Notes under the pieces: model-generated | The model's input: the letters and a program-made list of their open reading frames with translations, nothing else | Told to the model about the DNA's origin: nothing | Database searches by the model: none | Translations under genes and position numbers: made by a program | Part shown: one piece after another, positions 5,860 to 18,420 of the stretch | Layout: every line of letters begins with the position of its first letter | Position numbering within the stretch: the first letter of the stretch is position 1 | From: Minisyncoccota bacterium | GTDB lineage: Bacteria; Patescibacteriota; Minisyncoccia; UBA6257; HR35 | Assembly: GCA_028276075.1 (NCBI GenBank) | Contig: JAPYXA010000001.1 | Location: 1 to 29,567, forward strand | Direction of reading: 5' to 3' | Length of the DNA stretch: 29,567 nucleotides

Positions 5860-6002
5860 ATAAGAGACAAGACTATAACTTTTGAATATAGTCCTTGGTT
5901 TAAAATTTTAAAGAAACACTCCACACTGCTTACTTTGTTTGTACCATTGAAAGCATTATAAAACAAGCTTTTTAAGAAGTGAAATTAAAAATTAGGAATA
6001 CT
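5860..6002 (+). repeat. Junction J1: degenerate copy with a 91-bp internal deletion removing the core
   Basis: Matches J3 on the left (TTTGAATATAGTCCTTGG...AAGAAACACTC) and right (ACTGCTTACTTT...ATTAGGAATACT). The segment equivalent to 17539-17629 is missing, joined at a CTC microhomology. TGG is replaced by TAA in the frame. Confidence 0.85.
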
Positions 6003-6037
6003 TGTGATGTTTTAAACAAAGTATAACACTTTATTTT

Positions 6038-6265
6038 TTAATTTCTCAGTAATTTTAAAAATTCTTCTACTGATAAGCCTACTTGTTTAATAATGGCTTT
6101 TAGTGTGCCTTTCTTTAAATCTTTAGTATGATAAGGAATTGTAATACCGATGCTACCCTTAACATAAATTCTATGACTTCCTTTTTGTCTCACAAAAACA
6201 AAACCTAATTTTTCTAAAACTTTAATCACTTCCTTAGACTTTAAGGATGGCAGTTTCGGAGACAT
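6038..6265 (-). CDS. hicA: HicA-family mRNA interferase toxin
   Basis: LEKLGFVFVRQKGSHRIY motif; 'TIPYHTKDLKKGTLKAIIKQ'. Confidence 0.93.
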   Translation of the reverse strand: MSPKLPSLKSKEVIKVLEKLGFVFVRQKGSHRIYVKGSIGITIPYHTKDLKKGTLKAIIKQVGLSVEEFLKLLRN

Positions 6266-6514
6266 TTAAATTCTTACTTTAACAGGAGCGAGGATTATTT
6301 CCTCATCGTCTTTGATTTTCTCTTTATCTTTTTTCATAACTTCAAAATATAGAACTATAGCTTCTTTAATATTCTTTAAAGCTTCATCAAAAGTATCTCC
6401 TTCAGAAATACAACCAGGCAAAGAAGGCACAGTTACTGTATAGCCACCATCCTCATTTTTCTCAAAAACAGCTGTAAATTGATAGATTTTTTTCTTTAAA
6501 GATCTTTTAGCCAT
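6266..6514 (-). CDS. hicB: HicB-family antitoxin (short form, no evident DNA-binding domain)
   Basis: EDGGYTVTVPSLPGCISEGDTFDEALKNIKEAI; abuts the hicA start. Confidence 0.93.
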   Translation of the reverse strand: MAKRSLKKKIYQFTAVFEKNEDGGYTVTVPSLPGCISEGDTFDEALKNIKEAIVLYFEVMKKDKEKIKDDEEIILAPVKVRI

Positions 6515-6549: not shown

Positions 6550-6558
6550 ATTATAACA
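6550..6558 (-). promoter_or_regulatory. Extended -10 promoter (TGTTATAAT) for hicBA
   Basis: Perfect TGnTATAAT on the minus strand, 35 nt upstream of the hicB ATG. Confidence 0.6.
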
Positions 6559-6574
6559 TAACCAAAAATAAACT

Positions 6575-6688
6575 GCTAATTTTGAGAAAATTCATTCTGA
6601 AATGCTCCGCACTGCTTACTTTATTCGAACCATTGAAAACATTATAAAACAAACTCCTTGGGAAGTAAAATTGAAAATTAGAAATACT
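6575..6688 (+). repeat. Junction J2 (attP-like): 32-bp core 6578-6609 plus 79-bp right arm
   Basis: AATTTTGAGAAAATTCATTCTGAAATGCTCCG is identical to 17600-17631 and 18322-18353. Arm 6610-6688 differs from 17632-17710 at 8 of 79 positions. Confidence 0.95.
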
Positions 6689-6741
6689 TGGGAGGTTTTG
6701 AGTGTTATATAATTAAAAAAAACAACTATTTTACAACTATT

Positions 6742-6893: not shown

Positions 6894-9800
6894 TTATTCT
6901 CTAATAATATCTTCTAATTTCCAAAATAATCTGCCACCTTTTTCTAAAAGTTCGTTAATAAGAGAAATTACTCCGTCTTTTATTTTTTGATTTTTATTTT
7001 TATAAAGAATATTAAATGCTTCATACCATTCTTGATCTATATGAATTAACATTCTGTTTTCGCGTTTATTCTCTAAAATACTATTTAAAAATAAACTTAA
7101 AATTTCTAATGTTTTTTCAGGAGATTCTTTGGCTAATCTAACAATATTTTTCATTAATGCATAATCCCAATCTAAAACGCCTTCTGTTTTTTCTAAAGTT
7201 CTTTTAACCAAATCAGCTAATTCTTCACCTTTGAAAATTCCTTTATCTAAATCAATCCAAAATCCGAATGCTTCAAATGGTTTTTTGTCTTTTGTATATT
7301 TCTCAAGCATCCAATTCCAAAAATCCTTAATTCTTTTCTTAATATTTAAACCATCTTTTTCTATTTTCTCAATAAGATTATCTTCTCTTGTTATAATATA
7401 ACGTCCGATAAAATCTACAAAATGAAAATGTTCTTTTGAGCTTCCTTCTTCCCAGAATTTTTTAAATAATTTATTTTCAAAATCAAATTCTTTAAAATGT
7501 ACAAAAGCAAGCGCTAAATGAGCAGCAATTCCTTCGTCTAAATCTCTAAAATTTTCTTGATTATAATCTTCTTCTTTTAATATAATTCCGTATTCATATA
7601 ATTCCTGAATTTTTAGATCAAAAAATAGTTCTTTGTATAAATTTTGAGACAAATATCCTTGCCAACTTGCGGTATAAAGCCGATTATTTTCTTTTGGAAA
7701 TATTTTAGAAAATAAACTTCTTACCCATTCTTTATCTCTAAAATAAAATGATGGCAAATAATAACCAAACATAAACATTAAAGCCCGAGTATTTTCTTTC
7801 TCTAAAACTTCTTTAAATATTCCTTTTACATCCTCTTTTAGCTTCTCACCATCCTGATAAATAAACAAAACAAAATCTTCAAAAGCTCTACCTCTAACTG
7901 AATTAATTGCTATTGTAAAAGGATCAGAAATCTTTTTTTCTTTCCCTCTTTCAACTGTCATTTTTGCTGTTTTAATATCTTCATCTTCTGGAATTGGATC
8001 CGGATAATTCAATAAGTATTTAATTATTTTCAACAACTCTCCTCTGTATTTGCTAAAATCAATTACAACTATACCATCTTCGCTTTTTAATAATTCTCTA
8101 ATAACATCAGTCATTGCAAAATGAACCGAATTCCAATTAGCTAACAATGTATAACCAAACTTCTGCTCTTGAGGTTCGTTATAGAAACGCTTTTTCTCTC
8201 CTGATTCTTTAATTTTTAATAAAAGGTCAATTAAATTTTTCCCATCAATATCTTTTGCTTTCGCTCTATTATTTTTTATTGCTTCTTGAACACCAGCCAG
8301 AAAAGAATAAGTATAATGAGGATGCAATTTTTCTCTATTAAAAAACTCAGTTGAATATTCTAAATATTTTTCTAATCTTTCTGGGACATTTCTTTTAATA
8401 TGGTCACCGATACCACCAGCATTTATTAAGTCAAAAATATCATATTTATCCTTGTATGTTTGGTAAAGATTTTCAGGAGTCCATTCAGCAGTCAATTTTT
8501 CTAAAATTTCTTTAATTTCCATTTTTGAAAATTCCTCATAAGATATTGGCGATCCACTTCTAACAGTACCGAATTTTACTTCTACTTCCGGCTTTATCTC
8601 AATATCTGGATTTAATTCAAATCCATTGTCTTTTGATTTTAATTTCTCTTTTTCTGTAAGATGATTAAAAATCAACGAAAGTATTTTTGAACCATCTTTT
8701 ATAATCCATTCTTTATCTGGATTTTTCTCTTTTTGTCCTACAAAAAATTCTATAACTTGCTTTACATAATCTCTTTTGTCTTTTTCTTCTAAAACTCCAA
8801 AACAATTCTGAAGTAATTTTTCATATTCAACTGTCAAAATATCATAATACCTATCGCCAACATTAAAAATTCTAAATAACGTTTTTTTAATTTCGTCTTT
8901 GAAGATTGAGCAATCTAATTGTAAAATGGCTAACCTCAATTTCCATGCTGAATATGTATCCGGTAATATTTCCACATTTTCAAAATCTAAAATGTCTTTA
9001 AAAATTTTTCTTAAATCTTCTTTATTATCTTTATATTTTTCTTTAATTAATCTTCTTGAAATTTCTAAAATAGCAGCAATAAGTTCTTTGATATTATCTT
9101 TGCCCCATAAATCTTTATCTTCTCCAACTTTTAAATCAGAAAAATCTTCATAGAAATAAAGATTATCTTTTAACTTAAATATACTTTCTTCACTTTTTTC
9201 AGATGCATTATTTATAACCTCTTTTAAAATTTTTATTGATAAATCTAGAACTTTTTCCAAATATTCATCATCAATATTAACCAAATACCAAAAAACTCTT
9301 GTATAAGATAAATTTTCAAAATAAAATGGACTTTCTGGAAATCTGTTTTGACTTTTTATTTCTTCCCTGCTTTTAACAGATAATATCGCTTCAACAAGAA
9401 TTAATAAATTATCAAAATTTTTTGCCTCAAATAGTTTTTTAAGTATTTCCTCGTATTCAAAACCCCATTGATTAAAAACACCCATTAAAGGAATCCAGTT
9501 TTCATCTTTTATTTTCTGAACAATTCTAACTAATTGTTTAACTGGTAATTTACTACAAATATAAACAAATCTATCTATTACTTCTGGATTAAATGTTTCT
9601 TTTGAAATCGAAACCTGAAGTATAATATCTACAACTTTTTCCGGTACTTTTTCAGCTACTTTTACTAAATAATTTAATTCTGGAGTTTTATAACTATAAC
9701 GAGTTGGATCTTCTGCTTTTTGCTTAATTGCATCTAAAAATCCATTTCCCCAAAGCCAATCAATCCATCGTTCGTCTGCTTTATAAAAGAAATAATAATG

Positions 9801-10361
9801 GGCATCACTATTTATATTGATCAGAGCTTCAATTTCATTTTTCAGTTGTTCCTGTTGAAATTCTATCGGCTCTTTCTCTAAAATTTCATCAATAAATTTA
9901 TGTATATCTGTTTGATATGCTAATGCTTTCTTTATAACCTTTATGAATTCTTGGCGTAAATTTTCAAAATCTTCTATGAGTCTATGATGAGCAACATCTT
10001 GTAATTTATTATAAAGTTTTCCTATTTCTTCATCTTTTATTAGTTTTGACCCCACAGAACCAAATTTTTCAAAAGCTTTTTTCTTTTTATCTTTAACTTG
10101 CTTGATTTGCGGACTAAAAAATGGATAAAGAATTTCTCTTAAGGAATGAGTTGCTTGAGATAACCAATCAGGATTAGATCTATTTTCCTCTCTAGCAGCA
10201 AAAATCGAGCCTTTATAGAATTCAGATGGTTTTTTATTCAAATTATAATATTCATAAAATTTATCCAATTTCCGACACAAATATTCTTCCTCCGGAGATA
10301 AAATAACGGGCGGTAGACGTGTAATTCCATAAAACTCTGGTAAATTTTTATCCTGTTCCAT
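6894..10361 (-). CDS. Large hypothetical protein (possible HEPN-like N-terminal domain + long alpha-helical region); putative defence effector
   Basis: 1155-aa ORF overlapping the MTase stop by 14 nt. N-terminal NPDWLSQATHSLREIL and KLQDVAHH. No Walker motif seen. Confidence 0.8.
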   Translation of the reverse strand: MEQDKNLPEFYGITRLPPVILSPEEEYLCRKLDKFYEYYNLNKKPSEFYKGSIFAAREENRSNPDWLSQATHSLREILYPFFSPQIKQVKDKKKKAFEKFGSVGSKLIKDEEIGKLYNKLQDVAHHRLIEDFENLRQEFIKVIKKALAYQTDIHKFIDEILEKEPIEFQQEQLKNEIEALININSDAHYYFFYKADERWIDWLWGNGFLDAIKQKAEDPTRYSYKTPELNYLVKVAEKVPEKVVDIILQVSISKETFNPEVIDRFVYICSKLPVKQLVRIVQKIKDENWIPLMGVFNQWGFEYEEILKKLFEAKNFDNLLILVEAILSVKSREEIKSQNRFPESPFYFENLSYTRVFWYLVNIDDEYLEKVLDLSIKILKEVINNASEKSEESIFKLKDNLYFYEDFSDLKVGEDKDLWGKDNIKELIAAILEISRRLIKEKYKDNKEDLRKIFKDILDFENVEILPDTYSAWKLRLAILQLDCSIFKDEIKKTLFRIFNVGDRYYDILTVEYEKLLQNCFGVLEEKDKRDYVKQVIEFFVGQKEKNPDKEWIIKDGSKILSLIFNHLTEKEKLKSKDNGFELNPDIEIKPEVEVKFGTVRSGSPISYEEFSKMEIKEILEKLTAEWTPENLYQTYKDKYDIFDLINAGGIGDHIKRNVPERLEKYLEYSTEFFNREKLHPHYTYSFLAGVQEAIKNNRAKAKDIDGKNLIDLLLKIKESGEKKRFYNEPQEQKFGYTLLANWNSVHFAMTDVIRELLKSEDGIVVIDFSKYRGELLKIIKYLLNYPDPIPEDEDIKTAKMTVERGKEKKISDPFTIAINSVRGRAFEDFVLFIYQDGEKLKEDVKGIFKEVLEKENTRALMFMFGYYLPSFYFRDKEWVRSLFSKIFPKENNRLYTASWQGYLSQNLYKELFFDLKIQELYEYGIILKEEDYNQENFRDLDEGIAAHLALAFVHFKEFDFENKLFKKFWEEGSSKEHFHFVDFIGRYIITREDNLIEKIEKDGLNIKKRIKDFWNWMLEKYTKDKKPFEAFGFWIDLDKGIFKGEELADLVKRTLEKTEGVLDWDYALMKNIVRLAKESPEKTLEILSLFLNSILENKRENRMLIHIDQEWYEAFNILYKNKNQKIKDGVISLINELLEKGGRLFWKLEDIIRE

Positions 10362-13300
10362 AATTCTCTATAATTTTAATCTCGTCTTCGGTTAAGTTAT
10401 AAAGTTTATAAACTAATTGGTCTATTTGTTTTTCGTATTCGGTTGTGTCGGCTTTTGAGTTTTGATTTTTAAGAGATAGAATTTTATCAACTAATGATTC
10501 TATTTGTTTTGTCAGTTGTCTATTATTTTCAGAAATGTAAGGAATTGGGAGTTTTTCTAAAAATTCTTTTTTATATCTATAACCCTCGTCTCCTAAACCG
10601 CCACCTGCGTAGAATTTTCTAAAAAAATATGTAACCGGTTTTGAGTTTAATAATCCGCAGATGTATTTAATATTTTCTCCTGTCATTAAAAATGCAGTTG
10701 CTTCAATATAAAATTTATTTTCATCAAAATAAAACTGTGGTTCTTGCACTATTTCTGAATATACTATCTTCTCCTTCTCAAACTCCGGATAATAAGCACA
10801 ATGGCGTAATTCCCACCAGTAATCACCTTGATCATCTCTTTTTTTAGCTTCTTTCTCAAATTTTTTTAAATATTTCATTAAAGATGGAAAGGTTTTTTCA
10901 ATAAATATTTCTGGTTTTTCTTCTCCTCTATTTTCATCTGTCCAACCAGCTGGAATGACTATAACCCACAAACCTGCCCACTCATAATAATATCTTTTAA
11001 TATCTCTCCCTCTTAAAATTGGATTGATGATTGCTTCGGTTCTTTTTCGTTCTTCTTCGTCTTTACAATTGGCTAAAATTTGGTTTCTTTTTTCTGTGGT
11101 TATGATAAAAGCTTCATTTAAACCGGTTTTGATACCGTAGTAAATTTTTACATCCCAATCTTTTAAAGGCTTGCCAATTTTTTCAATTTTTTCTTTTAAT
11201 TTTCTTTCTGCTTCGGTGCCAATAAACCAAGCTTCTGATGTAAGATTAGAAAGCAAAATGCTTTTTTCTTTAAATACTTCATCAATATTGTTTTTATCTT
11301 GTTTTTCAAGCTTTAAAGCTTTTAATTTATTTTGATTTTGCGATTTTTGAATTATTAAAATACAAGTATCCACTGTCGCGCTTTCAAAAACTCCAGGACC
11401 CAAATCAATAAGCTTAATTGGATTATATTTAATAAAAAATTCTCTTAATTTTTTACCATAGCCAGCCCTCATCCATTTATTAGAAGAAATATAAGTTAAA
11501 ATTCCATTTAATTTTAAAAGTTGTATCCCCTTTTCATAAAAAAGACAATAAATATCTCCAGTTCTATCAAATGTTTCATATCCTTCTTCTTTGTATAAAT
11601 CAGCATATTTTTTCTCTTTATCAAAAGCTTTTTGAAGTTGAATATAAGGTGGGTTAGCAATCACAATATCAAAACCATCACTTAATCCAAACATCCATTC
11701 TGGCTCAAACCAAGGATTAGAATAATTTGGATCAAAAGGTTTAAAAGCAAGAATTTTTTGAGCTGTTTGTTTTAAAGCATCTCCAGAAATAACTTTTTTA
11801 ATTTCTTCTATTTTCTTATTAACTTCTTTTAATTCTTTTAATTTACTCTGAATTTTTCCTTGCTTTAAATCAATACTTAGTCGCATAGTTTTGCCGAATA
11901 ATCTTTTTTGCTCAATAACCTGAAATTGCTCTGGCTCTAATTTAATTTTTTCAATCTCTTCTTGAATTTTTTTTGCTTGCGAAATCAATTGTCCTAATTC
12001 TCTTTTTTTCTCTATTTTAATAGTAGATTTCAAGCTTTCAGATAATTTCTTTTCTAATTTTTCTATATTTTCTCTTATCTTTTTCTTATCTCCTCTTAAT
12101 TTTGCCCTAAAATAACGATGATATTGTTCTTTAATATCATTAAAAAGTTTTTGGATTTTTTCATCTTTAAATAATGTAAGTTGGATATCTTTTTTAATAC
12201 CTAAACCAATTAGAGAATTAGCAGTGATAAATTTCAAATCAAGATTTGGCAAAGGAATAATTCCAAAATTTTCTTTATTTTTATCAACTTTTTGATCAAT
12301 GATTAAAGAAATAAAAAATCTTAATTTGCTTAATTGTGTAGCAATTTGCTGAATATCAACTCCGAAAATACAATTTTCTATTAAATAAAGTTTTCTGGCA
12401 TAATCAGGGTAAAAAAGATTTTCATTAAATGTTTCTTCTAATTCTTTAAAATGTTCTTCTATTTCTTTTTCATCTTTTTCTGATAATTTTTTAAGTTCTT
12501 CTTTTAATTTTCTTATTTGAATTTTTTTCCAATATTCATTTTTGGGGTCTATTTTCCCTAAAACATAAACCAACTTATTTAAAATACCCATTGGAAAAGC
12601 ACCAGAGCCACAAGCAGGATCGATTATTTTAATTTCGCTTATTATTTCTACGATTTTTTCTTTTTGTTTTTCTTCAGGTTCAATTTCTTCATCTGAATAA
12701 GATAAAAGTAAATCAAGGGTTTCTTCTGGTATTTCGGGAAGCTTAGTTTTAAAATATTCAAGAAGGCTTTGATGAACCATATATTCAACAATTTCTCTTG
12801 GAGTATAATAACTACCTGTTGCTTTTCTTGCTGTGGTTGCGGTTTCCGGATTATAGACTGCCAAAAGATTTTCAAAAATTTTTCCTAAAAGTTCTGGGTC
12901 CAAAGCAACTTCTTGGTCAATTGGAGTTGCTTCATCTATCGTAAAATTATAGCTTTTTAATATATTAATAAGTCCTCTTGCTTTTTGATTTGATTTAATT
13001 TGGTATTTGCTTAAATCAGTTTTAATTTCTTCGCTAAAGAATAAATAATCAGGAATTTTTGCTTGTCTCTTTTCTTCTCGTGAAAAACCATCAACATAAA
13101 TTACTTTTCCGTTTTCATCTTCTTTGTCTAAACAATCAAAAAGACCACCATTGATAAAAGGAATCTCAGAGAATATTTCTTGTACTTCTTCAGGAGAAAT
13201 TAAAAATTTGTCTTCGTATCTATATAATTGTTTAATCCCATAAGTATTCCTATTTTCCGGAAACCCCTTGTTAAAAGCCCAACCTCTATCTTTAATTGGT

Positions 13301-14073
13301 TGATTTAATGTAGCAAAGAATAAATTTTGCAAAATTGCGTTGTAATAATTACAAGAATCTTGGGAAACATTAAAATCTTTAATTACTCCTTTAATTTCTT
13401 TTTGGTTAAAAATTTGATCTGGAATTAATCCTTTTTGCTTAATAAACCAAATAAAAATTAATCTACTTAATAATCTTATAAGATGTAGAGGCTTGGTTTC
13501 TTTTTTATTATCTGGAAAATGTATTTTATCTAAAGCGGTAAAGAACCATGTTTGGATTTCTTTATAAAATTCTTTTGTAATTGGCTCAACAGAAAATGCT
13601 TCTTTTATTTTTTCTAAAGATGAAAAATCTCCATCTCCTACCTGACGTAAGAATGTATTATTTGTCTGATCTTTAGACACAAAATAGGTGAATCTCTTGA
13701 AATGACTAAACTTTCTTTTAGTACCAAAGTATTCTGTATAAATTAAAGAAAATCTGAATTTATTATCATTGTCATAAAAAATAAATATTCCAGCATCTGC
13801 ATTTTCATTTTTTAAAATTTTTTTCCCAATTTCGTATTGTTTTTTCTTGCCGGATCTTTCAGTTAATTCTTTTAAAACTTTAAATGTACAAAAAATAATG
13901 TTATTATCTTGAAATTGAATTTCTCCGATCTTTTTTGATAAACTAAAATCTTCATTTTCAATTCCTAAATTAATTTCTAAAGGTCTAAAATTATGATTTT
14001 TAATTCGAAAAAAATTAATAAATTTTTCTGGAGAAAAATCTTCAATTATTTGTCTTAAAATTTCTCTGCTCAT
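10348..14073 (-). CDS. Eco57I/TaqI-like N6-adenine DNA methyltransferase with C-terminal target-recognition domain
   Basis: FINGGLF, PELLGKIFENLL, GSYYTPREIV, motif I DPACGSGAF, motif IV IANPPY, TaqI_C-like C-terminus. Confidence 0.93.
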   Translation of the reverse strand: MSREILRQIIEDFSPEKFINFFRIKNHNFRPLEINLGIENEDFSLSKKIGEIQFQDNNIIFCTFKVLKELTERSGKKKQYEIGKKILKNENADAGIFIFYDNDNKFRFSLIYTEYFGTKRKFSHFKRFTYFVSKDQTNNTFLRQVGDGDFSSLEKIKEAFSVEPITKEFYKEIQTWFFTALDKIHFPDNKKETKPLHLIRLLSRLIFIWFIKQKGLIPDQIFNQKEIKGVIKDFNVSQDSCNYYNAILQNLFFATLNQPIKDRGWAFNKGFPENRNTYGIKQLYRYEDKFLISPEEVQEIFSEIPFINGGLFDCLDKEDENGKVIYVDGFSREEKRQAKIPDYLFFSEEIKTDLSKYQIKSNQKARGLINILKSYNFTIDEATPIDQEVALDPELLGKIFENLLAVYNPETATTARKATGSYYTPREIVEYMVHQSLLEYFKTKLPEIPEETLDLLLSYSDEEIEPEEKQKEKIVEIISEIKIIDPACGSGAFPMGILNKLVYVLGKIDPKNEYWKKIQIRKLKEELKKLSEKDEKEIEEHFKELEETFNENLFYPDYARKLYLIENCIFGVDIQQIATQLSKLRFFISLIIDQKVDKNKENFGIIPLPNLDLKFITANSLIGLGIKKDIQLTLFKDEKIQKLFNDIKEQYHRYFRAKLRGDKKKIRENIEKLEKKLSESLKSTIKIEKKRELGQLISQAKKIQEEIEKIKLEPEQFQVIEQKRLFGKTMRLSIDLKQGKIQSKLKELKEVNKKIEEIKKVISGDALKQTAQKILAFKPFDPNYSNPWFEPEWMFGLSDGFDIVIANPPYIQLQKAFDKEKKYADLYKEEGYETFDRTGDIYCLFYEKGIQLLKLNGILTYISSNKWMRAGYGKKLREFFIKYNPIKLIDLGPGVFESATVDTCILIIQKSQNQNKLKALKLEKQDKNNIDEVFKEKSILLSNLTSEAWFIGTEAERKLKEKIEKIGKPLKDWDVKIYYGIKTGLNEAFIITTEKRNQILANCKDEEERKRTEAIINPILRGRDIKRYYYEWAGLWVIVIPAGWTDENRGEEKPEIFIEKTFPSLMKYLKKFEKEAKKRDDQGDYWWELRHCAYYPEFEKEKIVYSEIVQEPQFYFDENKFYIEATAFLMTGENIKYICGLLNSKPVTYFFRKFYAGGGLGDEGYRYKKEFLEKLPIPYISENNRQLTKQIESLVDKILSLKNQNSKADTTEYEKQIDQLVYKLYNLTEDEIKIIENYGTG

Positions 14074-17000
14074 AAATTCCTATTTTCTATCGCAATAATA
14101 ATTTCTTTACTAATTTCTTTTAATTTTTCTTTTTCTTTTAATAAGTAATTTTCTCCCCCTAACTCATCTTTTAATTTTTCTAATTCTTTTATTGTATTTT
14201 CCATTTCATCGTCCGAAGCTTTTAATTTTATAATTCTGCGCAAAGTATAATCAGATAGAGTACCATAATCTGTAATATCTTCTCGCAAAGTGCGTAAGAA
14301 TTCTTTTAGTGGAGATAATTTTTCATTGTTTAAGTTAAGTAAAGTTTTAATATTGTTTAATGCTTTTTGCTCTAAACTTGCTTCAGGAATAGGCAACCTT
14401 TCTTCTCTTAATTCTTTAACAATTTCGTATTTTTCCCAAAAATTGTCACTTAAATCTATCAATTTTTCATTTTTGGGGCAACGAATTCTATCTATTATTT
14501 CTTCAAGTATAACTGGCTGTGGTTTATTTTGGTCGTTGTAATCAATTTTTTGGATATACAGTCTTCTTTTTTTAATAAACACAAGAAGTTCATCTTTATC
14601 GGATTTTTTTGCAACTTTTACTCTTGGTGGACAATTTTTTATATTCTCAACAATTTCGGGGTATTCTTTTTTAATTCTTTCAAATTCATTCAAAATTGTA
14701 GTATAAAAACTCTCACTTTCTATTTTATCTGGGTTTTGTTGTATTCTTTGATACAGTTCGGAAGGAATTGGTTCTTCATCAATATCAAATATTTTAGCAT
14801 CTTCTCCAAGCACATTATGAATTAAAAACATTTTTTGCGCCGCTATTTCTCTTGATTTTACAAGTTCGGATCCTTTTTCAGTTGGAAAAAAGTTTGCTAT
14901 ATAAACTTTATCAAAAACTTTTTTACCAATCCTATTGATTCTACCCACTCTTTGAATAACTCTTACCGGATTCCAAGGTATATCATAATTTATTACAAGA
15001 CCAGCTCGATTTAAATTAAATCCTTCAGAGATTCTATCAGTAGATAAAATAATATCGTATTTGTTTTCTTTCTTTTCTTCTGGATAAGAAGCGTCAAAAT
15101 TTTTATTTATTTCTTCTATTTTAGTTTTTGTTAGATCACCAGCAATAACTAAAACACTATCATTAAAGTATTTTTGTAATGGGTTTTTAAGATATTTAAC
15201 TGTATCAAGATATTCTGAAAATATAACAATTTTTCTGCGAGGATCTATTTTCCTCCATTCTCCTAATTTGTTTATTAAACACTCCAATTTAGGATCGTTA
15301 TTTACTAGTCCTAAAGCATCTAACCTTTTTAAAATTTCTTCAAATAAATTAAGATCAGATTTTATATCCTCAAGAAAAAGATCTTTTTCTTTCAGTTTTT
15401 CTATTTCGTATATATCCGAGTTCTTTGGATAAATTCCTTCGTTCAATTTTTGAGCGTATTCTTTAAGTTTTTCTTCTATTTGTTCAGGTTCTAATTCACA
15501 AATTTTTTCCAGGAAGTCTCTGTCTAAAATAAATTTATTGGTTTTATTTATAAATTGGAGGCAATGATCTGTTATGTTTCGGAAGTTTTCTATACTTTGC
15601 TTAAATGCTCCAAAAGAACTTTCAAATCTTTTAACAAGCAATCTTCTCATAAAGTCATACAAATTAAATTGTTGTTGAAATCTTCTATTATCTTCTTCTG
15701 ATAAATCAATTTCTGTATCTTCATATTTAACTCCTGCTTTATATTCAAAAGGCCTGTAAATTGCACCTTTAAATTTTCCGCCCTCTTCTGGATAATTAAA
15801 ATAACTTATTACTTCGTCATAAAATTTAGACTGCTCTTTGGATAATTCAAAAAACCATTCCTGAGGATCTGCAACTTCAGTTAAATTTTTAACCTCATCT
15901 TTATAAAATGGATTCTTTTGTAAATCAAGTCTATTTCTTCTAATTGTTACAGGTTCAATAACGTCTCTTATTTGTTTTGATAAATATTTTGCTCTTTGAG
16001 TAACTTTTCTTAGATCTATTTCGTCCTCTCCGAATAAAGATTTGTAATATGCTTTTGCCTTTGAAGATTTGTTTTCATCGCCTAAGTTGTGATATTTTTT
16101 AATATAACCAAGTTTATCAAAGGTAGTTTTAAATATCCTAAACTTATCTAATAAATTATTTTCTAATGTAATTGTCGATTTTTTAGGAGATATAAATAGT
16201 TTTAATAATGACAAAATATCACCGGGGCGATTATTAAATGGAGTTGCAGTAAGCAAAATTACTATTTTATCACGACAAATATTTTTTAATTGTTCGTATG
16301 ATTTGGTATCTTCATTTCTAAATCTATGCGCTTCATCAACTATTATTACTTCAATATCTCTTAATCCTTTTAAAGATTTTATAAAATCTTTATTGCCTAA
16401 TTTTCCTATTGATTCTGCTCGCCAATCGTATAATCCAAAAGCTTCAAGATACCATCTCCACCCTGATTTTTCCTTTTTTTCGTCTCCTATAAGGCCTGGT
16501 GGACACAAAACAATGCCTCTTTTTCTTAATTGCCTAGCTACTAAACAGGAAATTATTGTTTTACCTAAACCAACAACATCAGCTATTATAACTCCATTAT
16601 TGTTTTCTATTATACTAAGCGCTTGTTTAACAGCATGTATTTGATAAAGATAAGGAGCAAAGCCATTTTTTTCCATAACTGATTTAATGCTTTCGTCACC
16701 AACATCTTTAAGAGAGAAAGTGTCAAGATAATTTTTTAAAACAAGAGAATATGCTTCAAATGGAGTAATTTTCTTTATTAAAGTTTTATTTTCAATAGTA
16801 CTTATTAGTCGCTCTTTTATTATATTATTTTCTGTTATCTGGATTGCCTCTTCCCAAAGATTATCAAAATATTCTTCCGCCTCTTTTGATCCATAATCAC
16901 TTATTTCTACATTAAATTCTTGTTGTTGTTCTAAACCAGCCGATGTTAAATTACTACTGCCTGTTATAAAAATAGTATTTTTTACTTCTCCGGGTTTTAA

Positions 17001-17417
17001 TTTAAAAATATACAATTTAGCATGATTTGGTTTATAAGTTTTTCGAATTATTAATCTATTTTCTTTTATTAAATCTATGAAAAATTTAACTTGTTCGTAA
17101 AATTCTCTTGTATCAAAATCGTCTGAATTGATAGAAATTGCTAAAGATTTGAAAAAAAGATCTAATTTTTCTTGACCTGATATACTTGAATCTCTCTCAG
17201 TAATTTCTATAAGTCCATAAGTTATCTTATCAACATTTAAACCAACTAAGATTTTTAATTTAGCAGAAGGATTGTTTTTTAACCCTTCGTACAATTCTTT
17301 TATTCCGGAAAAATAAAAGAAACCCACTAAAAATTTTAATTCATTGCTTTTGGATATTAACTCACTTATCCTATCTTTCAAATTCCCAACTCCGCTATTG
17401 GTTATAAAATTAGCCAT
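14070..17417 (-). CDS. PLD-nuclease + SNF2/SF2 helicase fusion
   Basis: PLD-like NHAKLY...GSSNLT; helicase motifs IADVVGLGKT, DEAHRFRN, LTATP, SEGFNL, NYDIPWNPVRVIQRVGRINR. 4-nt overlap with the MTase start. Confidence 0.93.
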   Translation of the reverse strand: MANFITNSGVGNLKDRISELISKSNELKFLVGFFYFSGIKELYEGLKNNPSAKLKILVGLNVDKITYGLIEITERDSSISGQEKLDLFFKSLAISINSDDFDTREFYEQVKFFIDLIKENRLIIRKTYKPNHAKLYIFKLKPGEVKNTIFITGSSNLTSAGLEQQQEFNVEISDYGSKEAEEYFDNLWEEAIQITENNIIKERLISTIENKTLIKKITPFEAYSLVLKNYLDTFSLKDVGDESIKSVMEKNGFAPYLYQIHAVKQALSIIENNNGVIIADVVGLGKTIISCLVARQLRKRGIVLCPPGLIGDEKKEKSGWRWYLEAFGLYDWRAESIGKLGNKDFIKSLKGLRDIEVIIVDEAHRFRNEDTKSYEQLKNICRDKIVILLTATPFNNRPGDILSLLKLFISPKKSTITLENNLLDKFRIFKTTFDKLGYIKKYHNLGDENKSSKAKAYYKSLFGEDEIDLRKVTQRAKYLSKQIRDVIEPVTIRRNRLDLQKNPFYKDEVKNLTEVADPQEWFFELSKEQSKFYDEVISYFNYPEEGGKFKGAIYRPFEYKAGVKYEDTEIDLSEEDNRRFQQQFNLYDFMRRLLVKRFESSFGAFKQSIENFRNITDHCLQFINKTNKFILDRDFLEKICELEPEQIEEKLKEYAQKLNEGIYPKNSDIYEIEKLKEKDLFLEDIKSDLNLFEEILKRLDALGLVNNDPKLECLINKLGEWRKIDPRRKIVIFSEYLDTVKYLKNPLQKYFNDSVLVIAGDLTKTKIEEINKNFDASYPEEKKENKYDIILSTDRISEGFNLNRAGLVINYDIPWNPVRVIQRVGRINRIGKKVFDKVYIANFFPTEKGSELVKSREIAAQKMFLIHNVLGEDAKIFDIDEEPIPSELYQRIQQNPDKIESESFYTTILNEFERIKKEYPEIVENIKNCPPRVKVAKKSDKDELLVFIKKRRLYIQKIDYNDQNKPQPVILEEIIDRIRCPKNEKLIDLSDNFWEKYEIVKELREERLPIPEASLEQKALNNIKTLLNLNNEKLSPLKEFLRTLREDITDYGTLSDYTLRRIIKLKASDDEMENTIKELEKLKDELGGENYLLKEKEKLKEISKEIIIAIENRNL

Positions 17418-17476
17418 AATTATATTTTAATTTTACCATTCTATATTTAGAGTTCAAATTTTAAAGAAAGATTTTA

Positions 17477-17743
17477 ATAAGGAATATGGTCATAAGTTTT
17501 GAATATAGTCCTTGGTTCGCAATTTTAAAGAAACACTCTAGACTTATTAAAGAAATTTGCGAACTCGAAAAAGATAAGATTTTACAAGGAGAAAAAGCTA
17601 ATTTTGAGAAAATTCATTCTGAAATGCTCCGCACTGCTTACTTTATTCAAACCATCGAAAATATCATCAAACAAACTCCTTGGGAAGTAAAATTAAAGAT
17701 TAGGAATACTTTTCAAATAATTAATGAAGTCTTTGGGCATTAA
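17477..17743 (+). pseudogene. Junction J3: most complete copy; 85-aa ORF reading through the core (probable C-terminal remnant of an element gene, possibly a recombinase)
   Basis: Core 17600-17631 lies within ...KANFEKIHSEMLRTAYFIQT.... Homology to J1 extends upstream of the ATG (IRNMVISFEY vs IRDKTITFEY), so the ATG is probably not an original start. Confidence 0.6.
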
Positions 17744-18142
17744 AATTTTTAATTTATGTTTAGAAGCAAAGTTTATCACTTTTTGATTTAGAAACCCTTT
17801 ATCTAAAGTTAAAAGAAAATTAACTTTTTCCTTTATTGCTGAAGCTAAAATAGGAGCATCTTTTTCTTCCACTAAATTTTTTAATTGTTTTAAATCTTTT
17901 TTATTCGGGTTATTCACAATAGAGATTTCTCCTAATGTTAAAATTTCAAAAAATCTCATTAAAAGATTAGGAAATTTTCTTTCAACAACATCTAAAAGCT
18001 CTTTTAAAATAAATTCTGAAATAAACAATTTATAACCTTTGTTTTTAGCTGAAACTAAACAATAATATGAAGCTCCTTTATTAGAAATCAAAGAAGAAAT
18101 GATAACACTTGAATCAACAAAAACTTTTTTATTGTTTTCCAT
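17693..18142 (-). CDS. PIN-domain (VapC-like) toxin
   Basis: VFVDSSVIIS, SEFILKEL, KDAPIL and LLTLDK supply the PIN acidic residues. Start MENNKK at 18142 preferred, since the longer track start lies inside the antitoxin ORF. Confidence 0.9.
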   Translation of the reverse strand: MENNKKVFVDSSVIISSLISNKGASYYCLVSAKNKGYKLFISEFILKELLDVVERKFPNLLMRFFEILTLGEISIVNNPNKKDLKQLKNLVEEKDAPILASAIKEKVNFLLTLDKGFLNQKVINFASKHKLKILMPKDFINYLKSIPNL

Positions 18143-18302
18143 AATATTTCTTATAAATTTTTGCTCTAGATTTTTTAAGATCTTTTCTAACTTTCTCCCA
18201 TATTTTTTTGTCAACACTAAAATCAATTTTTGGGCTAATAATTGTCTTCAAAACCTTCAATTCTTTTTCTAATTTATTTATTCTTTCTAAAACTTTTACC
18301 AT
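18129..18302 (-). CDS. Putative antitoxin (57 aa) for the PIN toxin
   Basis: Not in the track. MVKVLERINKLEKELKVLKTIISPKIDFSVDKKIWEKVRKDLKKSRAKIYKKYYGKQ*; overlaps the PIN start by 14 nt. Confidence 0.7.
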   Translation of the reverse strand: MVKVLERINKLEKELKVLKTIISPKIDFSVDKKIWEKVRKDLKKSRAKIYKKYYGKQ

Positions 18303-18311
18303 CTTATTTAA

Positions 18312-18320
18312 ATTATAACA
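18312..18320 (-). promoter_or_regulatory. Extended -10 promoter (TGTTATAAT) for the PIN TA pair, near-leaderless
   Basis: Perfect TGnTATAAT with 9 nt between it and the ATG at 18302; immediately adjacent to the junction core. Confidence 0.65.
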
Positions 18321-18321
18321 A

Positions 18322-18353
18322 AATTTTGAGAAAATTCATTCTGAAATGCTCCG
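18322..18353 (+). repeat. Junction J4: 32-bp core overlapping the tRNA-Asn 3' end
   Basis: Identical to the J2 and J3 cores; its last 5 nt (18349-18353) are the tRNA 3' terminus. Confidence 0.95.
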
Positions 18354-18420
18354 GGGGCAGGATTCGAACCTGCGACATCGCGGTTAACAGCCGCGCGTTC
18401 TACCGCTGAACTACCCCGGA
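18349..18420 (-). tRNA. tRNA-Asn (GTT), CCA not encoded
   Basis: TCCGGGG/CCCCGGA acceptor stem, GTTC/GAAC D-stem, CGCGG-CT-GTT-AA-CCGCG anticodon arm, GCAGG-TTCGAAT-CCTGC T-arm, G discriminator. Confidence 0.98.

Follow-up and report, generated by a model that had tools for sequence, protein, structure and literature searches.

Relic attachment junctions beside tRNA-Asn in a Minisyncoccota genome point to large serine recombinases whose genes span their own attP

We analysed a 29,567-nt stretch of DNA from a Minisyncoccota bacterium (the window), in which the sole tRNA called by ARAGORN is tRNA-Asn(GTT), at 18348-18420 on the minus strand. A plus-strand frame at 18322-18387 runs into this gene: its terminal 40 nt are antisense tRNA-Asn, and the TAA that closes it (18385-18387) is the antisense of the tRNA anticodon loop. 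The sequence-only reading had translated this frame as NFEKIHSEML-RGQDSNLRHRG*, drawing the second part from the reverse strand of the tRNA; the translation is exact and ends at that TAA, and the minus-strand ARAGORN call agrees with the 40-nt overlap. The first 32 nt of the frame (18322-18353) have exact further copies at 6578-6609 and 17600-17631, where 100 shuffles give an expectation of 0 matches. No ORF of at least 40 aa is present in this frame. An in-frame TAA at 18316-18318 lies two codons 5' of the first residue of the quoted translation and the sole ATG is the Met codon at 18346-18348, so that the longest possible peptide has 13 residues. By tblastn, the frame matches residues 502-522 of LSR1 at 100% identity; LSR1 is a large serine recombinase of related bacteria that is described below. 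On the basis of the exact repeat, the tblastn match and the in-frame TAA, we assign 18322-18353 (plus strand) to a junction, J4, that reads as a relic attR, in which a 32-nt P half-site and core are fused to the tRNA. The tRNA gene itself, identified by ARAGORN and by sequence, forms the B' side of the attachment site, and its last 6 nt fall within the common core. The tRNA-adjacent copy retains only the 32-nt half-site, so 18322-18387 yields no protein. We conclude that this stretch is a fossil junction with one recombination half-site left, not an expressed gene and, judging from its sequence, that the 32 nt at J4 are the final codons of a lost large serine recombinase (LSR) gene.

The remaining copies of the repeat mark two further plus-strand junctions. 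At J3, 17420-17631 is the 3' remnant of an LSR1-type recombinase gene that ends in a P half-site and core (73% identity by tblastn, supported by genome search and alignment) and corresponds to LSR1 residues 439-512. It continues in frame into a P' arm (17632-17743) encoding an alternative tail of 37 residues. An ATG at 17486 opens an 85-aa ORF within this stretch (17486-17743), and the frame at 17600 accordingly runs 37 residues past the repeat, to the stop of that ORF. A DEDDh_C Pfam match of the 85-aa ORF (E 0.007, below cut-off) was rejected as chance. J2 (6578-6709) consists of a minimal P half-site and core (6578-6609) followed by a P' tail (6610-6709); the frame at 6578 runs 33 residues past the repeat, and tblastn found no recombinase remnant upstream. 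A third plus-strand junction, J1 (5860-6023), is decayed: what is left of the 3' end of a recombinase gene runs into a P' tail that carries an internal stop, and the P half-site has been deleted. The break (5905-5930) falls between two similar short words, gaaacactcc and gaaatgctccg, with the entire P half-site gone, which suggests deletion between short repeats.

These junctions delimit an array of 12.6 kb that extends from ABC-transporter genes to tRNA-Asn and comprises three units, each with a P' tail at its left and a P half-site at its right. All cargo genes lie on the minus strand. Cassette 1 (6038-6514; Pfam) encodes a HicA toxin (6038-6265) and a HicB antitoxin (6266-6514). Cassette 2 (6894-17417; Pfam and PADLOC) is a three-gene defence operon encoding a 1155-aa protein for which only the C-terminal two-thirds of Dsr1 is matched (E 9e-14), a methyltransferase like those of type IIG RM systems (E 1e-156), and a PLD and SNF2 helicase protein close to the DrmD and HKD+Snf2 models. 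Its three genes are translationally coupled, and their combination as a whole is not a listed system. Cassette 3 (17693-18302; Pfam) encodes a PIN-domain protein (17693-18226) and a 57-aa partner (18129-18302). At 17693-17743 the PIN gene draws its last codons and stop from the strand opposite the conserved P' tail; across loci, one of the tail's reverse frames has a pN/pS of 0.38.

The P half-sites of the minimal cassettes are directly flanked on the outside by ATTATAACA, both in the window (18312-18320 and 6551-6559) and at L028, L058 and L027. On the cargo strand this motif reads as TGTTATAAT, an extended -10 element, and each cassette therefore seems to bring its own promoter; in cassette 3 the TGTTATAAT-type -10 element, the reverse of 18312-18320, abuts the P half-site of J4. 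At J2, J4, L028 and L058 the P arms are all cut back to the half-site, with a TGTTATAAT-type promoter ahead of them on the cargo strand, which suggests a class of minimal, recombinase-less cassettes.

Neither the window nor the remainder of its 66%-complete genome gave a match to PF00239 or PF07508; at that completeness a recombinase could sit on an unassembled contig. Decay is ongoing, since the near-identical strain at L024 keeps 167 LSR1 codons before the same tail, compared with 73 in the window. The units of the array have functional-looking att sites and no recombinase in cis within this 66%-complete genome. We conclude that the recombinase has been lost from the window, and that a recombinase-less array of three att-bounded cassettes has been kept. 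Canonical LSRs are not known to pair attP with either attL or attR, so the formation of a tandem array is unexplained by canonical attP × attB chemistry; co-integrates and homologous exchange are possibilities.

Intact counterparts of the lost gene are present in relatives. Residues 2-49 of the 85-aa ORF end exactly at the end of the 32-nt repeat and match the C-terminus of a 522-aa protein in G012, a genome of the same family as that of the window, where the gene ends 40 nt inside tRNA-Asn. Its Resolvase and Recombinase domains identify this protein as a large serine recombinase, LSR1. We found four intact LSR1 genes (P0006-P0009, 511-526 aa), three of them from other assemblies, and all stop in antisense tRNA-Asn. 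They sit at the end of small elements together with a GP3_package-like gene, a DUF5659 gene and a gene of ~410 aa. In the intact gene at L018 (P0009), 18 codons before the core are absent relative to its relatives, and the tRNA-Asn there is short of one G after the core; the resulting frameshift within the tRNA makes the ending 20 residues long. Recombinases of a second family, LSR2, share 27-30% identity with LSR1 and align with it from end to end, including a C-terminal extension; they end in antisense tRNA-Asn at L046, L026 and L025, and as frames of 503 aa or more in G002 and G016. PF00239 is matched with E values of 2.6e-21 in P0007 and 8.3e-18 in the LSR2 of L046; both families also match PF07508, and LSR2 matches PF13408. 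Residues R10, S12 and S13 are invariant in alignment A4, identifying in these relatives' genes a resolvase-type catalytic domain with a serine nucleophile. C285, C288, C305 and C311 are likewise invariant in A4 and are followed by a long helical stretch rich in K and E, in keeping with a four-Cys zinc-ribbon domain and its inserted coiled coil. Among 25 genomes of the window's family, an intact LSR is present at tRNA-Asn in G012, G002 and G016, and remnants occur in at least six others, including that of the window. A scan of viral contigs with P0007 returned only an unrelated recombinase, 31% identical. In the complete genome G002, a long composite island of ~21 kb occupies the same site (contig 1, 555.6-576.4 kb); a single strand carries an entire tRNA-Asn together with an intact LSR2-like gene, as well as a B|P' junction and additional half fragments of tRNA-Asn.

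The sequence-only reading had proposed that the parent element encoded an integration-state-dependent protein, possibly the recombinase itself, and had pointed to recombinase ORFs with LRGxDSN-type tails. The first proposal holds in relatives, where LSR1 and LSR2 read across the P|tRNA-Asn junction, and the second point is borne out by intact LSRs that end in antisense tRNA-Asn. Intact genes reading into the tRNA thus do exist, namely the four LSR1 genes and the LSRs of the second family, and the domains of the encoded proteins in relatives are Resolvase, Recombinase and zinc ribbon. The supposed intact parent gene is found in those relatives, but none survives in the window.

The core common to attP and attB is TGCTCCG, and attB is the 3' end of tRNA-Asn. 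From the sequence we predict an attP-type site of ~50 bp at 17602-17652, in which an outer TTTGA (17603-17607) mirrors TCAAA (17647-17651) around a centre near 17627, inside the core; the 32-nt exact repeat starts 2 nt outside the 25-bp P half-site. The motif TTCGAACC occurs 10 nt from the core in the tRNA arm, within the antisense T-arm, and 15 nt from it in P'. This spacing fits the 5-bp difference described for the Listeria integrase, which has 25-bp attP half-sites and a zinc-ribbon-domain (ZD) motif that lies 5 bp closer to the centre in attB than in attP (PMC3783163). The P and B arms are only weakly symmetric, and on inspection the B arm did not convincingly mirror the tRNA arm. Four kinds of junction occur around the core: P|tRNA (attR type) at J4 in the window and at L008, L010, L017, L018, L020 and others; P|P' (attP type) at J3 and J2 in the window and at L009; B|P' (attL type) at L046, L038, L012, L013 and others; and B|tRNA, a likely empty site in G024 whose left arm is that of the attL-type junctions L034 and L037. 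As judged from their sequences, these four types are the set expected of site-specific recombination around TGCTCCG.

Some loci depart from this scheme. At L011 (G005), L015 (G018) and L021 (position 369 onward) the P arm is joined to another conserved right arm, CTATAT...TTGCGAA...TTAGATAG, which is probably a second P' family, with unrelated tails of 5-55 residues. Between an TTAGATAG-type arm and an ordinary P' tail, L021 carries a 1.7-kb segment with a Peptidase_S51 gene. At L014 (G011), L020, the right end of L025 and L086 (G002), the P arm is followed by only the 3' half of tRNA-Asn, as far as the anticodon loop. Past this half, unrelated DNA starting CACTTACCC..TAAGTT lengthens the integrase tail to 17 residues. 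The half tRNA-Asn looks like a displaced fragment from a second kind of element, with its crossover in the anticodon loop of the same tRNA.

We searched metagenomes for the P' tail with a tail-only alignment, A2; a first, mixed alignment (A1) had contained no conserved stretch. The scan identified 38 loci, several of them with LSR2. At L046 it recovered a complete element of ~4.85 kb that runs from a B|P' tail through GP3_package, HTH_17, an AAA_25 ATPase and LSR2 to P|tRNA-Asn; its HTH_17 (Xis-like) gene is a candidate directionality factor. When three complete LSR2 elements (~5-6 kb) were excised in silico, the recombinase gene joined the tail in frame in each. The LSR2 product is 556-557 aa after in-silico excision, compared with 533-538 aa in the integrated form, and it ends in a conserved tail of ~35 residues.

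We next examined selection on this tail using 28 unique intact tails. Over tail codons 9-31, pN/pS was 0.21 in the recombinase frame and 0.96 and 1.28 in the other forward frames. Entropy was 0.79 at third positions, compared with 0.35 and 0.32 at positions 1 and 2, and the position of the stop was conserved. The first 8 tail codons, which overlap the P' half-site, had a pN/pS of 0.83, and we conclude that they are constrained as a DNA half-site and not as protein. The substitution pattern of the remainder indicates that the P' tail is coding sequence under purifying selection. For LSR1, protein searches found no full-length enzyme carrying the P' tail, the form expected from a free attP; LSR1 fused to the tail was seen as truncated remnants only (J3 in the window, L024 and L025). 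Nor was a P' tail found upstream of the intact LSR1 genes at L017, L018 and L019, where two of the contigs break off within the element and the P arm of L018 is a variant. An AlphaFold model of the 99-aa C-terminal extension plus tail showed a beta-hairpin followed by four helices, one of which spans the crossover; at a mean pLDDT of 68 this model is too weak for a functional claim.

To gauge how widespread the design is, we searched with a profile of LSR1 and LSR2, which gave 5449 cluster representatives at E < 1e-30. At least 61 of the 150 best representatives end in antisense-tRNA-type peptides, and another group among the same best 150 has P'-like tails of varied length, ~7-30 residues past the half-site. 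At 25 of the 30 best loci the ORF ends inside an antisense tRNA called by ARAGORN, with an overlap of 12-93 nt. The target tRNAs of the clade are Asn, Asp, Gln, Trp, Lys, Ser, Arg and Gly, and an LSR of the same clade is present in 216 of 401 sampled genomes of the phylum. The tRNA-derived endings are 3-20 residues long (3, 13, 17 or 20), as set by single-base differences between tRNAs, and we conclude that they are filler and not a conserved peptide. Because tail lengths vary across the clade (~7-30 residues) and the second P' family is unrelated, a conserved function of the tail is not general. We found no description in the literature of serine integrases with an attP-spanning design, and a tRNA-targeting clade of serine integrases that span their own attP is apparently undescribed.

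Taken as structure, the locus is very probably the fossil attR of an LSR-using element whose attP lay inside the 3' end of the recombinase gene, as the shared sequences of the window and its relatives suggest. In the sequences of this element family the attP, of ~50 bp, lies inside that gene ~35 codons before its stop. With attP in the gene and attB in the 3' end of tRNA-Asn, the integrated gene runs from its own P half-site into the antisense tRNA, which provides a stop after 3-20 arbitrary residues. The circular form, as read from the sequence, encodes a protein that is ~20 residues longer and ends in the conserved P'-encoded tail. Functionally, removal of the tail and placement of the 3' end within a convergent tRNA gene may change integrase activity or abundance when the element is integrated. 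A regulatory switch of this kind is plausible by analogy with IntP/IntX of phage Mx8, and we would put an altered activity or abundance in the integrated state only a little short of even.

The strongest alternative is that the arrangement is a neutral by-product, the att site having come to lie in a dispensable C-terminal extension of a compact element, with both isoforms equivalent. Such neutrality would accommodate tRNA-derived tails that are free to take 3, 13, 17 or 20 residues, the many P'-type tails of the wider clade that stop ~7 residues past the half-site, a crossover situated ~35 residues past the final beta-hairpin of the canonical fold, and integrated genes that are intact in 25 of the 30 best loci. 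It sits less easily with the purifying selection on tail codons 9-31 (pN/pS 0.21) within the tail's own subfamily, with the conserved stop position, and with a tail common to elements whose recombinases are only ~30% identical; in the Mx8 precedent, moreover, the swap is reported to alter activity (PMC6070905). We consider a neutral by-product a serious possibility, if appreciably below even. A second alternative, which we judge improbable, treats the P' tail as an independent small gene, for example one encoding a 37-residue peptide that starts at an ATG or TTG in the core and is expressed at the left junction. The core does contain an ATG (in LSR1 and B arms) or a TTG (in LSR2) in frame with the tail, and purifying selection alone does not tell which start is used. 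However, the sequence upstream of the core at left junctions differs from site to site and has no conserved promoter or ribosome-binding site, the recombinase reading frame is the only constant upstream context, and continuity of frame is kept with two recombinase families that are ~30% identical.

Integration-dependent immunity of the type known from mycobacteriophage BPs (PMC4557955) is a far weaker candidate. In BPs, attP reportedly lies within the repressor gene, the integrase is a tyrosine recombinase, and integration removes a degradation tag from the repressor. The sequence-only reading had drawn this analogy, and the formal likeness, an attP inside a coding region, stands; the closest analogue, however, is Mx8, in which the att-spanning gene is the integrase. 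Here the spanning ORF is a recombinase with Resolvase, Recombinase and zinc-ribbon domains, the 85-aa ORF is without a helix-turn-helix or repressor domain and has only a sub-threshold Pfam match, and none of 32 tails has an ssrA-like ending. We saw neither an affected repressor, nor a tyrosine integrase, nor tag removal, and given the domain content of the spanning gene we reject the repressor reading as very improbable. That 18322-18387 is a chance open frame without a history, as its closure two codons upstream and its want of a usable start might suggest, is hardly credible and is rejected given the 32-nt exact repeat found three times with 0 expected and the 100% identity to residues 502-522 of an intact LSR1.

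In the textbook picture, it is tyrosine integrases that target tRNA genes, and the attP of a serine integrase lies outside the integrase gene. SCCmec/ccrAB islands and CIMEs, which grow by accretion, form tandem arrays at one att site and include recombinase-less units, presumably moved in trans; they insert at the 3' end of rlmH or other genes rather than at a tRNA, and their att site is not inside the recombinase gene. The three recombinase-less, att-bounded cassettes of the window match such recombinase-less units. Phage-type LSRs (Listeria A118/LI, phiC31, Bxb1, SPbeta) share with the present enzymes the order Resolvase-Recombinase-zinc ribbon with a coiled coil, as well as short att sites, 25-bp attP half-sites and a motif shifted by 5 bp between attP and attB, but in the known examples attP lies outside the gene and the targets are protein-coding (PMC3783163). 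The SSV-type 'suicidal' integrases of archaeal viruses and plasmids are tyrosine recombinases whose gene is split in two and inactivated by integration (PMC8371274, PMC7253208), and a 2021 review describes self-disrupting integrases as exclusively archaeal (PMC8371274). In the elements described here, by contrast, the exchange is confined to ~35 C-terminal codons and leaves the catalytic and DNA-binding domains intact, and the hosts are bacteria.

The nearest precedent is phage Mx8, in which attP lies in int and integration is reported to create a new 3' end and to alter integrase activity (Tojo 1996 and Magrini 1999, summarised in PMC6070905); the Mx8 integrase extends across attP (PMC4383910). 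In both cases attP lies within the integrase coding sequence and the integrated (prophage) enzyme has a different C-terminus. The Mx8 target is reportedly also a tRNA gene. As in Mx8, the crossover in the present elements lies inside the integrase ORF, so that the C-termini of the free and integrated forms differ; in the window itself only remnants of this arrangement are seen (J3 and J4). Mx8 encodes a tyrosine recombinase in a 50-kb phage, whereas here the enzyme is an LSR in elements of ~5-6 kb, the design is clade-wide, and it is known from sequence. The domains are those of serine recombinases and not of the tyrosine enzymes of Mx8 or SSV-type elements, and the resemblance is therefore one of design, not of family.

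The furthest-reaching interpretation, which on balance we hold to be doubtful, is that the tail swap acts as a state sensor across this apparently undescribed clade and that the minimal cassettes are riders moved in trans. The full-length, tailed enzyme would then be made only from the circle, and the integrated gene would give a truncated form altered in directionality, stability or expression. The window cassettes, each consisting of a 32-nt P half-site, promoter, cargo and P', would be non-autonomous riders on such an enzyme. If true, this would be a serine-recombinase equivalent of integron cassettes, with defence and toxin-antitoxin genes as the cargo. The design offers a testable idea of how small elements that lack an evident directionality factor might detect the state they are in. 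For the organism of the window, the defence and toxin-antitoxin genes beside tRNA-Asn arrived as att-bounded cassettes whose recombinase is now gone. More widely, around half of the genomes sampled from the phylum carry serine integrases of a clade whose genes terminate within tRNA genes, and the C-terminus of the enzyme is thus rewritten at each insertion or exit. This explains many annotated recombinase ORFs with odd, tRNA-like C-termini, and the clade is a source of compact integrases with natural tRNA-gene targets.
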